A program made the position numbers and the translations under genes. From NCBI GenBank assembly GCA_951406725.2, contig OX597821.1:8990001-9054000 (forward strand): a DNA stretch of 64,000 bases, read 5' to 3'. Below the pieces are notes generated by a model. That model saw only the letters and a program-made list of their open reading frames with translations. It was not told where the DNA came from and did not search any database. Shown here in pieces: positions 14,041 through 59,889 of this stretch; the first letter of the stretch is position 1, and the number at the start of each line of letters is the position of its first letter. This DNA comes from Octopus vulgaris (taxonomy: Eukaryota).

Positions 14041-14181
14041 TTATGACTCGATAATTCCTAAAGAAGCAGCTGTAATAGTTATGTCTGTATCTTTTTCTTG
14101 GGAAACCAATAAACCGAGCAGGAAGGCATTTCCATTACTACAAAAATCAAGGCAGCAAATTCCAACTTCTCATTATCGAAT
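14041..14181 (-). CDS. Candidate terminal exon of the minus-strand membrane-protein gene
   Basis: Pyrimidine tract tttctgtttattcttgataag; one frame (14169-14041) reads EVGICCLDFCSNGNAFLLGLLVSQEKDTDITITAASLGIIES*, while the phase-compatible frame reads FDNEKLEFAALIFVVMEMPSCSVYWFPKKKIQT*; frame unresolved. Confidence 0.25.
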
Positions 14182-14429
14182 CTTATCAAGAATAAACAGA
14201 AAGTTCAGTAATATTCTATACAGGGCATCGGCATCATAGAATCGTTTTAGCTTTTCATTATGTTTACTTTCGTTCTCAATACAAATCTCAAGATTTTAAC
14301 ATTCAGGGGTCGATAACTAAAGTACCAGTAAAGTAATGATATCGGCGTAATCAACTAAACTGCACCCTTTAAATATTGACTCATGTCTACATTTGAAACA
14401 TTTTGAATATTTCGCTATATGATGTTTAC

Positions 14430-14497
14430 TTATCCTTCAGTAATAATACATGTAGTTCAATCCTTTTGCAATTCTTTATATAATATATATAGTTTTC
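14430..14497 (-). CDS. Candidate internal exon (68 nt, phase 0 to 2) ENYIYYIKNCKRIELHVLLLKD
   Basis: tcctag|...|gtaaac, open in phase with the upstream candidate exon; acceptor is weak. Confidence 0.3.
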
Positions 14498-14855
14498 CTA
14501 GGACATTGTCGAGGTATGAAAGGTCTTTTCGGAAATACCCCTACTGTTTCCCCCTCATAAATTTAACTTAACACTTTTACGCTTTTGATAAAGCTGGAGC
14601 ATCATCCTTTAATGTAGGAACCATGACAGCATGAAATATCCATGGGGGTTAAACTCTTTTTCTCTGGGTACTTGAATACATCATGATGGGAAATGTTATT
14701 TTCAACTACTTCTTACATTTGAATCGTTCTTTGAACAATGATATATCAGTTTTCGTGGAAAGAAACAATGTAGTTATTAAGAAGAAGAATTATAACGAAT
14801 GCATGCAAAGTTTCTCACAATTAAATATCTCTCCAGCATCATCAACCTAAGAGTA

Positions 14856-15323
14856 AGGCGGCGAGCTGGCAGAATCGTTGGCACGCCGGGCGAAATGCTT
14901 TGTGGTATTTCGTCCGCCGCTGCGTTCTGAGTTCAAATTCCGCCGAGGTCGACTTTGCCTTTCATCCTTTCGGGGTCGATGAACAAGTTATATGCCAAAA
15001 CCAATAATATATACATTGAATCAATAAAAAAAATATCGACTCCAGCACATACGTTGAGTGAGTATATATTTGTCTTGCACTTTTCCACCGCTGATCAACT
15101 TGCATGTGACCGAATTTGTCTCCTCTGTGTTTGGCCGCTTGTGGGTAGTAAATAAATAGGTATTTCGTCTGTCTTTACGTTCTGAGTTCAAATTCCTCTG
15201 AGGTCGACTTTTCCTTTTATCCTTCCGGAGTCGATAAATTGAGTACCAGTTGCGTACCGGGGTCAGTATAATCGACTGGCCCTCTCACCAAAATGTCGGG
15301 CTTCGTGCATAGAGTAGAAAAGA
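14856..15323 (+). mobile_element. SINE pieces (14856-14983, 15158-15323) flanking a duplicate of the Tc1-like element 5' region
   Basis: SINE consensus motifs; 14982-15112 duplicates 15622-15752. Confidence 0.75.
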
Positions 15324-57900: not shown

Positions 57901-59259
57901 CTAGACCGTCAATAGAGAAGACTAGACAATATTTACAGAACTTCTTTGCTCAGAGAGCAACCAGCGAGAGAGAGAGAGGGGAGAGAGAGAGAATACGTGC
58001 ACAGTATCACAAATATGATTACTATCAGCAATAAGTATTGTCAAACGAAATATTATGTGAGAAAATACGATGTATAAACCAGAGTGAGGATAGAAATATA
58101 TCGGTAGCGAAGAACTTACGAGACTTTCAAGAATCCGCATCATCTTCATCCTGAATCTGAAATATAAATGGAAAGCAGAAACATATATTACTGCTGTGAT
58201 TTCTGTAGTTGGCTTATGGAATAAAATACAACATTAAGAAATGATTGAACACTGGTGTCGATGTAATCGACTTACATCTTTCCCAAAACGGATGGCATTG
58301 TTTCAGACATTAAGAGCAATATGGAAAGATTTGAACGGAGAGCTTGCAGAATAGTTTGCCATGCAGAGAGTTCAGCATCATTTTGCCCATGCTTACGTTC
58401 TTAGCTGTGGATTAATTCGCCTTTGATACTTGATGAGTGATAAAATAAGAAAAGTTGAATCACTAGTGACAATATAATCAATGTACACACTTCTCCGACA
58501 TATGCTGAAATTCTTCCCATATTTGAAAATAATATGAATAAAATATTCTAGTTCGAATCTGTGTTTAATTCATATTCGCGTCCCAAAATAAGATTGATAT
58601 ATCGACAGGATACAGAAATGATCAAGGGTAAGTATGAAATAATTTTAGAAAGAGAGCATCGACATTCTGTGGTTTATGTTACGCACTAAAATTAAAATAC
58701 CAGTGAAAGAATCAAGATTAATTATTAACTGAAGAGTAGAAATTTCGAAATGGGCACGTGAATCAAGGAAAATATCTATTAAAAGACATTCTTGAATGGA
58801 ATGTGCTATATCTTTGTCAATGAATCAGTTATTTCCTCCATCAGCCATTACATGAAAGGTAATATTTCACTGATCATTCGTCTTTACTGTATTCTAGCAA
58901 TTATTTGCTGCTCCAATACACTAGTGTCTGCCTATTATATCAAATCAGGACACTCCTTATTTTGATAGCTTCTGTTGTCAAAATTGACTATAAATGTTGT
59001 TTTGTTACGAGTACTGTGGTCCCTAAAATCCTGTGTATTTAATTGGCTGTATTGGATTCAATTGAATAGCCGTTCGTGGTATCCTGTATGGATAACAACA
59101 CATACATGTATATATACCCACATTTATAGGCAGGTATGTATGTACATACTTGTGTATGTATGTAAGCCTTTATCTACGTGTGTATGTATGTAAGCATGTA
59201 TGTATGCATGTATGTATGTATATATGTATGTATGCATGTATGTATGTATGTATGTATAG

Positions 59260-59450
59260 CGTATAAGATGGAGGTTGTCCTGGATAGATCTGCCGCCGAT
59301 TAGTCCACACACGATACGCGCCAACATGTTTGCTAATACCTTGGCCAAAATCTTCAAATCTCAATTAAGCGGAGTGATGGGCCTCAAATTGTCTATTTTA
59401 TCCCCGTTGTTTGAGTCCTTTCTTAGTAGCACCACGATCCCCCGGCAAAC
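59260..59450 (-). mobile_element. Tx1/L1 RT fragment (copies also at about 60955-61145 and 63520-63735)
   Basis: NLRPITPLN*DLKILAKVLA...GRSIQDNLHLIRY. Confidence 0.85.
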
Positions 59451-59847
59451 AGATTTGGGTATTAATAAATTTTATGTAGCATTAAATGATTTCATCTTAA
59501 TATACATCAATGTATAATGAGTCAAACTTCTAAAAGTTAAAATTTAAACAGATTAGATTTTACAGGCAAATTTTGTTGGGCTATTCTGCGTTGCAGACGT
59601 TTATACCCAGGCAAGTGTCTTAGATTTAAGACACCATTTTTATATACTTACTTCTACCTACCTATCAGTGTTTTCCTAATGGGTAGTCAGTGAGCAACCA
59701 GAGAGAGAGAGAGAGAAAGAGAGAGTTGTGCAAGGTATTACATACATGGTAATTATCAGCAATAAGGATTGTCAAATGAAATATGTGAGAAAATAAGATG
59801 TATAAACCAGAATGAGGATAGAAATATGTCGGTAGCGAAGAACTTAC

Positions 59848-59889
59848 GAGACATTCGAAGAATCCGCATCGTCTTCATCCTGTTTGAAT
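59848..59889 (-). CDS. Candidate exon (42 nt, phase 2 to 2) FKQDEDDADSSNVS; paralogous segments at 58120-58156 and 62412-62454
   Basis: atatttcag|...|gtaagt in all three blocks; only this copy preserves the frame. Confidence 0.45.

Follow-up and report, generated by a model that had tools for sequence, protein, structure and literature searches.

The window analysed here, a 64,000-nt stretch of Octopus vulgaris DNA (G000:C8:8990001-9054000, in a genome of 2.8 Gb), carries on its minus strand the exons of a gene that aligns with P0001, the Octopus sinensis membrane metallo-endopeptidase-like 1 X2, a neprilysin-like M13 peptidase (accessions XP_036361321.1 / XP_036361320.1 for P0001, P0003). 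The exon at 50452-50558 (phase 2/1) encodes the membrane anchor and matches P0001 residues 67-102 at 36/36 positions; it holds a hydrophobic stretch after a short cytoplasmic tail, which points to a type II topology. It is followed by a 42-nt stalk exon at 45884-45925 (13/14 to P0001 102-115) and by the first exon of the M13 ectodomain at 41263-41433 (171 nt, phase 1/1; 55/57 to P0001 116-172). At a contig end, positions 37545-37587 retain what is left of the next M13 exon, namely its 3' part and donor; the 5' part is missing, and the remnant aligns to the exon C8:8868451-8868368 of a second copy of the locus, described below as copy B. The last M13 exon, with the stop codon, lies at 24619-24718 (32/32 to P0001 732-763).

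The 171-nt exon was found in the minus-strand frame 41165-41443, bounded by AG and GT, and the one protein found for it among 3 candidates was P0001, to which it is 96% identical. Taken alone, it matched ECE-1 and neprilysin best among solved structures, weakly (E 0.14-0.34), and a Pfam scan of its frame returned nothing at E<=1; by itself the exon has diverged too far, which accounts for the absence of the window among the 36 matches of PF05649 over the genome. The last exon aligns with PF01431 positions 175-202 at E 0.004, below the cut-off. P0001 itself matches both PF01431 (E 4e-46) and PF05649 (E 1.3e-30) above the cut-off, as well as the structures of ECE-1 and neprilysin (E 2e-52 to 6e-48), and the exons of the window map to both ends of this two-domain protein. 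On these alignments, the gene is the orthologue of a peptidase already annotated in O. sinensis. A full-length homologue search at an overly strict cut-off gave P0001 alone among 8000 scored; the best non-octopus M13 proteins share about 30% identity with P0001.

The initial annotation had chained seven minus-strand exons (59889-59848, 54993-54979, 50558-50452, 45925-45884, 24103-24069, 23752-23705 and 14497-14430) into one small-exon gene for a type II membrane protein, possibly a TNF ligand. The coordinates and phases it gave are correct, each exon being preceded by AG and followed by GT, and the joined exons read through 119 codons without a stop. The minus-strand small-exon gene, its type II character and the membrane exon with its neighbours were confirmed; the TNF family and the 3' half were not. 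The annotation had also suspected that the gene was incompletely modelled or decaying. It had overlooked the 171-nt exon, and the appearance of decay is likely an effect of the assembly. Besides omitting this exon, the chain spans 100 Ns of assembly gap (37244-37343) and 11.3 kb of satellite, both of which fall within its longest intron, and continues beyond the stop codon of the M13 gene. Since the membrane, 45925 and 41433 exons are contiguous in P0001, the donor at 45884 joins 41433 and not 24103. The seven exons are not one gene; the 5' half (50558-50452, 45925-45884, 59889-59848 and 54993-54979) is more than chance, and the 3' half is not above chance.

The ease with which such chains arise was seen in the interval 24600-13000, where the threshold was set at the weakest splice scores among the three 3' exons of the chain. 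On the minus strand there were 605 candidate exons, which combine in phase into about 5.0 million chains of three; the corresponding figures were 415 and 1.7 million for the plus strand, and 308-486 and 0.7-1.8 million for 20 shuffles of the interval. The splice weights were generic and crude, the true exon at 41433 also scored low, and the real minus strand lay above 20/20 shuffles in both candidate exons and chains, so that the test shows only how easily chains of this kind are found.

All four 3' pieces of the initial annotation, namely its last three exons and a TNF-like final frame at 14041-14169, lie beyond the M13 stop. Two of them belong to a dispersed repeat at 23719-24111 (minus strand; 40 scored among 91 candidate copies, at 72-85% identity), which holds 24103-24069 and most of 23752-23705. 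In the 29 other copies that were aligned, some of them partial, the first piece retained AG in 24/29, GT in 12/29 and its length modulo 3 in 11/29, and the second retained AG in 24/29, GT in 1/29 and its length modulo 3 in 1/29, its donor lying just outside the repeat. Both were rejected as exons of the M13 gene, as the repeat copies keep neither donor nor frame. A second dispersed repeat occupies 24541-24136, directly after the M13 stop, and poly(A)-signal hexamers occur at 24569 and 24459.

The other two pieces, 14430-14497 and 14041-14169 on the minus strand, were also rejected, no homologue having been found for either. They could be real exons (14497-14430 and 14137-14041) belonging to a spliced 3' extension or to an independent transcript, small or non-coding. 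Both are single-copy in genome searches, and the phase-2 donor at 14430 is compatible with an AG acceptor at 14137, so that the last frame, described in the initial annotation as unreachable without a frameshift or an alternative acceptor, can in fact be reached. Nevertheless, their splice scores are weak, chance chains are abundant, neither piece has a Pfam match and none of 16 candidates in the protein collection reached E<=10 (weak evidence), which leaves a transcript of this kind very improbable. Taken together, the four 3' pieces of the earlier chain are repeat sequence or chance.

Similarity to TNF ligands was equally absent. A PF00229 (TNF) profile search of the genome gave 5 matches at E<=10, 0 of them in the window. 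The 3' pieces scored 20-27 against two TNF-domain frames of the same genome, values reached by 231-552 of 1000 shuffles, and the two frames scored 62 against each other as a positive control (0/1000 shuffles). These frames lie elsewhere in the genome, at C3:15797761-15798144 (L101, E 3.5e-22) and C24:30407406-30407741 (L103, E 0.025). Members of the TNF ligand superfamily have a C-terminal TNF-homology domain, which neither Pfam nor the pairwise scores detected in the window, and type II membrane topology is their sole likeness to the gene found here. A single TNF-like type II ligand gene from 59889 to 14041 has in its favour an open, phase-compatible chain, last frame included. It also omits an M13 exon, spans the gap, passes the M13 stop, draws on repeat sequence whose donor GT is kept in only 12/29 and 1/29 other copies and has no TNF similarity, and we give it almost no credence. 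The TNF-like gene does not exist, and the protein is an M13 (neprilysin/ECE-like) peptidase.

The structure of this gene is obscured by the assembly. The 100-N gap joins two contigs that are likely not true neighbours, and a 66-bp satellite of 170 copies (25991-37243) runs into it. To the right of the gap begins what we call copy A (window 37344 on). The block from 37588 to 64000, continuing to the window-equivalent position 68886, is duplicated at C8:8869050-8899816 (copy B), likely as the other haplotype; the overlap contains 258 mismatches in 30802 columns (0.84%) and 101 gap openings, and stops on the last base of B before a gap. The first 244 nt of A, in which the exon remnant at 37545-37587 lies, also match B. 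The middle exons of the gene are found 120-160 kb away on the same scaffold: in the 464 kb searched around the gene, the minus strand of copy B (C8:8881667-8830816) gave 16 exon-sized matches in order, covering P0003 81-623; the last of them is the HExxH exon, after which a gap follows at a distance of 5.7 kb.

Between B and A lies a third contig, X (C8:8899917-9027243), which holds window positions 1-37243. If X were misplaced, its left end would be predicted to overlap the contig to the left of B, and this second overlap was found: the first 5.5 kb of X correspond to the 5.5 kb that lead up to the gap of B, in the same orientation, with 32 mismatches in 5474 columns and both ends at gap edges. 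That both overlaps stop at gap edges suggests that two contigs are likely in swapped order in the assembly. We infer the true order to be the left contig with X, a gap, and then B with A. Heterozygous assemblies are reported to duplicate haplotigs (10.1101/2022.08.29.505626). Read along the reordered minus strand, the gene would consist of tail exons, the membrane exon, ectodomain exons as far as HExxH, a missing stretch of about four exons beside the satellite, and the last exon. P0003 624-745, which includes the zinc-binding Glu motif and, going by how paralogue D is laid out (see below), spans four exons, was not found in the 464 kb or in a genome search; the missing exons are likely located in the true gap, adjacent to the satellite. 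An intact gene in this individual is thus inferred from O. sinensis.

Several features of the region speak against a single gene divided by swapped contigs. The locus does duplicate, the 5' 26 kb of A are within about 4% of those of the neighbouring paralogue C, and a second, partial model, P0002, exists in O. sinensis. It is conceivable that the assembly is right and that a recent partial duplication in tandem produced two damaged copies, so that this individual carries a pair of pseudogenes, with A comprising the 5' exons and the last exon, and B frameshifted and without a 3' end. Frame-breaking changes do occur in both copies (B carries 8 inserted nt in the first ectodomain exon, and A has a deletion of some 640 nt in the following one), real segmental copying between A and C is seen in the cluster, and four exons were not found. 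Against this, the duplicated blocks terminate at gap edges not once but twice, the divergence is 0.6-0.8%, the pieces are complementary, and the remaining exons of B are close to P0001 and undamaged. The insertion and the deletion could be contig-end errors or real damage. On balance, a pseudogene pair appears unlikely, and we consider it highly probable that the window holds one neprilysin-family (M13) gene for a likely active membrane zinc peptidase, which looks broken likely through swapped contigs and a haplotype overlap assembled twice. A fault of this kind, located at G000:C8 8.82-9.06 Mb and comprising two swapped contigs, two duplicated overlaps and about four missing exons, would make one gene look like two pseudogenes.

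Other repeats are present in the same region. A near-perfect inverted repeat (94% over 718 nt) lies near the contig end at 37670-38737 and also in copy B, and several tandem copies of 430-860 nt with 95-99% identity surround the left overlap of X (G000:C8:8904471-8914369). Short copies of the 66-bp satellite occur at 8655, 11467, 12931 and 13137, and three of them flank a LINE-like reverse-transcriptase fragment at about 12048-12880 (RVT_1 E 0.023, below the cut-off). A decayed mariner element occupies 44238-45518 (Transposase_1 E 2e-9), with copies of 91-92% identity nearby, and other Tc1/mariner fragments lie near 5120, 17974 and 52487.

Upstream of the membrane exon, duplicated exons of 33 and 42 nt likely make up the cytoplasmic tail. 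The first exon of the initial annotation (59848-59889) is an intact, acidic, Ser-rich copy of a 42-nt phase-2/2 unit; it is homologous to the 14-residue units in the tail of P0001/P0003, and 7/11 residues match the P0003 unit next to the membrane exon. It is flanked by an out-of-frame copy of 43 nt at 62412-62454, which is likely either dead or affected by an assembly indel (its counterparts measure 42 nt in paralogue C and 41 nt in copy B), and by a 37-nt copy at 58120-58156, which is 42 nt and open in copy B. In all, the three copies measure 43, 42 and 37 nt in A and 41, 43 and 42 nt in B, and the two copies in paralogue C 42 and 39 nt. That the indels differ between A and B suggests consensus errors, without proof. 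The 33-nt family has 8 copies in the region, all of them 33 nt, open and of phase 2/2. The 15-nt candidate micro-exon at 54979-54993 corresponds to the last 15 nt of one member (55011-54979); the first acceptor of this member is CAG in C and CAC in both A and B. The micro-exon is one of 3 such candidates on the minus strand of its intron, the plus strand having 2, and is absent from P0001/P0003. As a candidate start exon, a 33-nt family member with an ATG is found at C8:9059369. An ATG-bearing piece at about 60030 was rejected as a first exon, being repeated in each unit and absent from P0001-P0003.

A single 14-residue tail unit distinguishes isoforms X1 and X2 of O. sinensis, so that skipping of tail exons is already present in annotation, and the tail is likely varied by skipping the symmetric 33- and 42-nt exons. 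ECE-1 has tail isoforms, and by analogy a sorting role may be envisaged for the acidic tail units. More speculatively, and in our view with considerable doubt, the genes could form an octopus-specific, fast-evolving neprilysin-like cluster, in which symmetric 33- and 42-nt tail mini-exons are copied between paralogues and skipped combinatorially, the acidic Ser-rich modules sorting the same peptidase to different membranes and so tuning neuropeptide breakdown.

With its HEILH, EENIAD and VNAVY motifs, P0001 likely acts as a zinc endopeptidase at the cell surface, its specificity being altered. HExxH is present as HEILH at P0001 600, and an identical exon lies outside the window in copy B (C8:8830881-8830816). 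The GENIAD motif, which carries the third zinc ligand, reads EENIAD in P0001, and the corresponding exon was not found in the O. vulgaris assembly (genome and 464 kb); VNAFY appears as VNAVY in P0001 and copy B, with the Asn kept. Only six ectodomain cysteines occur in P0001 (130, 138, 197, 433, 708 and 748); neprilysin has more. Judged by its family, the protein would be displayed on the cell surface, keep a short tail in the cytoplasm, bind zinc through HExxH plus a Glu and cut small signalling peptides before hydrophobic residues. As outlined by Bland et al. (PMC2259306), the M13 family is defined by HExxH together with the Glu of GENIAD and the Asn of VNAFY, and its invertebrate expansions include inactive members. 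Neprilysin-1 transcripts are mentioned for the anterior salivary and digestive glands of Paroctopus digueti (PMC12607849) and a neprilysin for O. vulgaris (PMC12919962); neither need be the gene in the window.

The same scaffold region contains the closest relatives of P0001, paralogues C (the orthologue of P0004, XP_029639718.1) and D (P0023, XP_036361323.1), which are 35-37% identical to it. Both group with P0001 (SH-aLRT 100) in a quick tree that flags long branches and covers 24 of 150 listed proteins, multi-domain ones having been left out. Paralogue C (G000:C8:9096632-9144172, plus strand) lies head to head with A. Over about 26 kb of 5' sequence, in which the membrane exon falls, it differs from window 48553-64000 and beyond by about 4% mismatches, while the ectodomains share only 37% identity. 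This 5' likeness reflects a 5' end that was recently copied or converted. Paralogue D (G000:C8:9260881-9339208, minus strand) has lost the HExxH and ENIAD motifs and is, on these grounds, likely a non-catalytic M13 protein. A further partial M13 copy at about 9.248-9.255 Mb shows matches on both strands. Among the literature titles searched, none concerned an octopus M13 cluster; supplements may list the gene. The repeated-exon tail and the divergent paralogue cluster provide a modest lead on octopus neuropeptide turnover.

In comparison with known systems, the gene is nearest to O. sinensis P0001/P0003, in which the same type II layout is found, four window exons are 93-100% identical and the tail has 14-residue units of the same kind. 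The sequence and number of these units differ, the 15-nt micro-exon is lacking in O. sinensis, and the octopus gene of the window is split across contigs. Neprilysin and ECE-1 (M13; PDB 1dmt, 3dwb) have in common with P0001 the PF05649 and PF01431 architecture, and HExxH, the ENIAD Glu, the late His and Arg and the terminal Trp align. P0001 departs from them in its VNAVY and EENIAD variants and its fewer cysteines, and the octopus gene in having no stalk cysteine pair and in bearing a tail of repeated exons.
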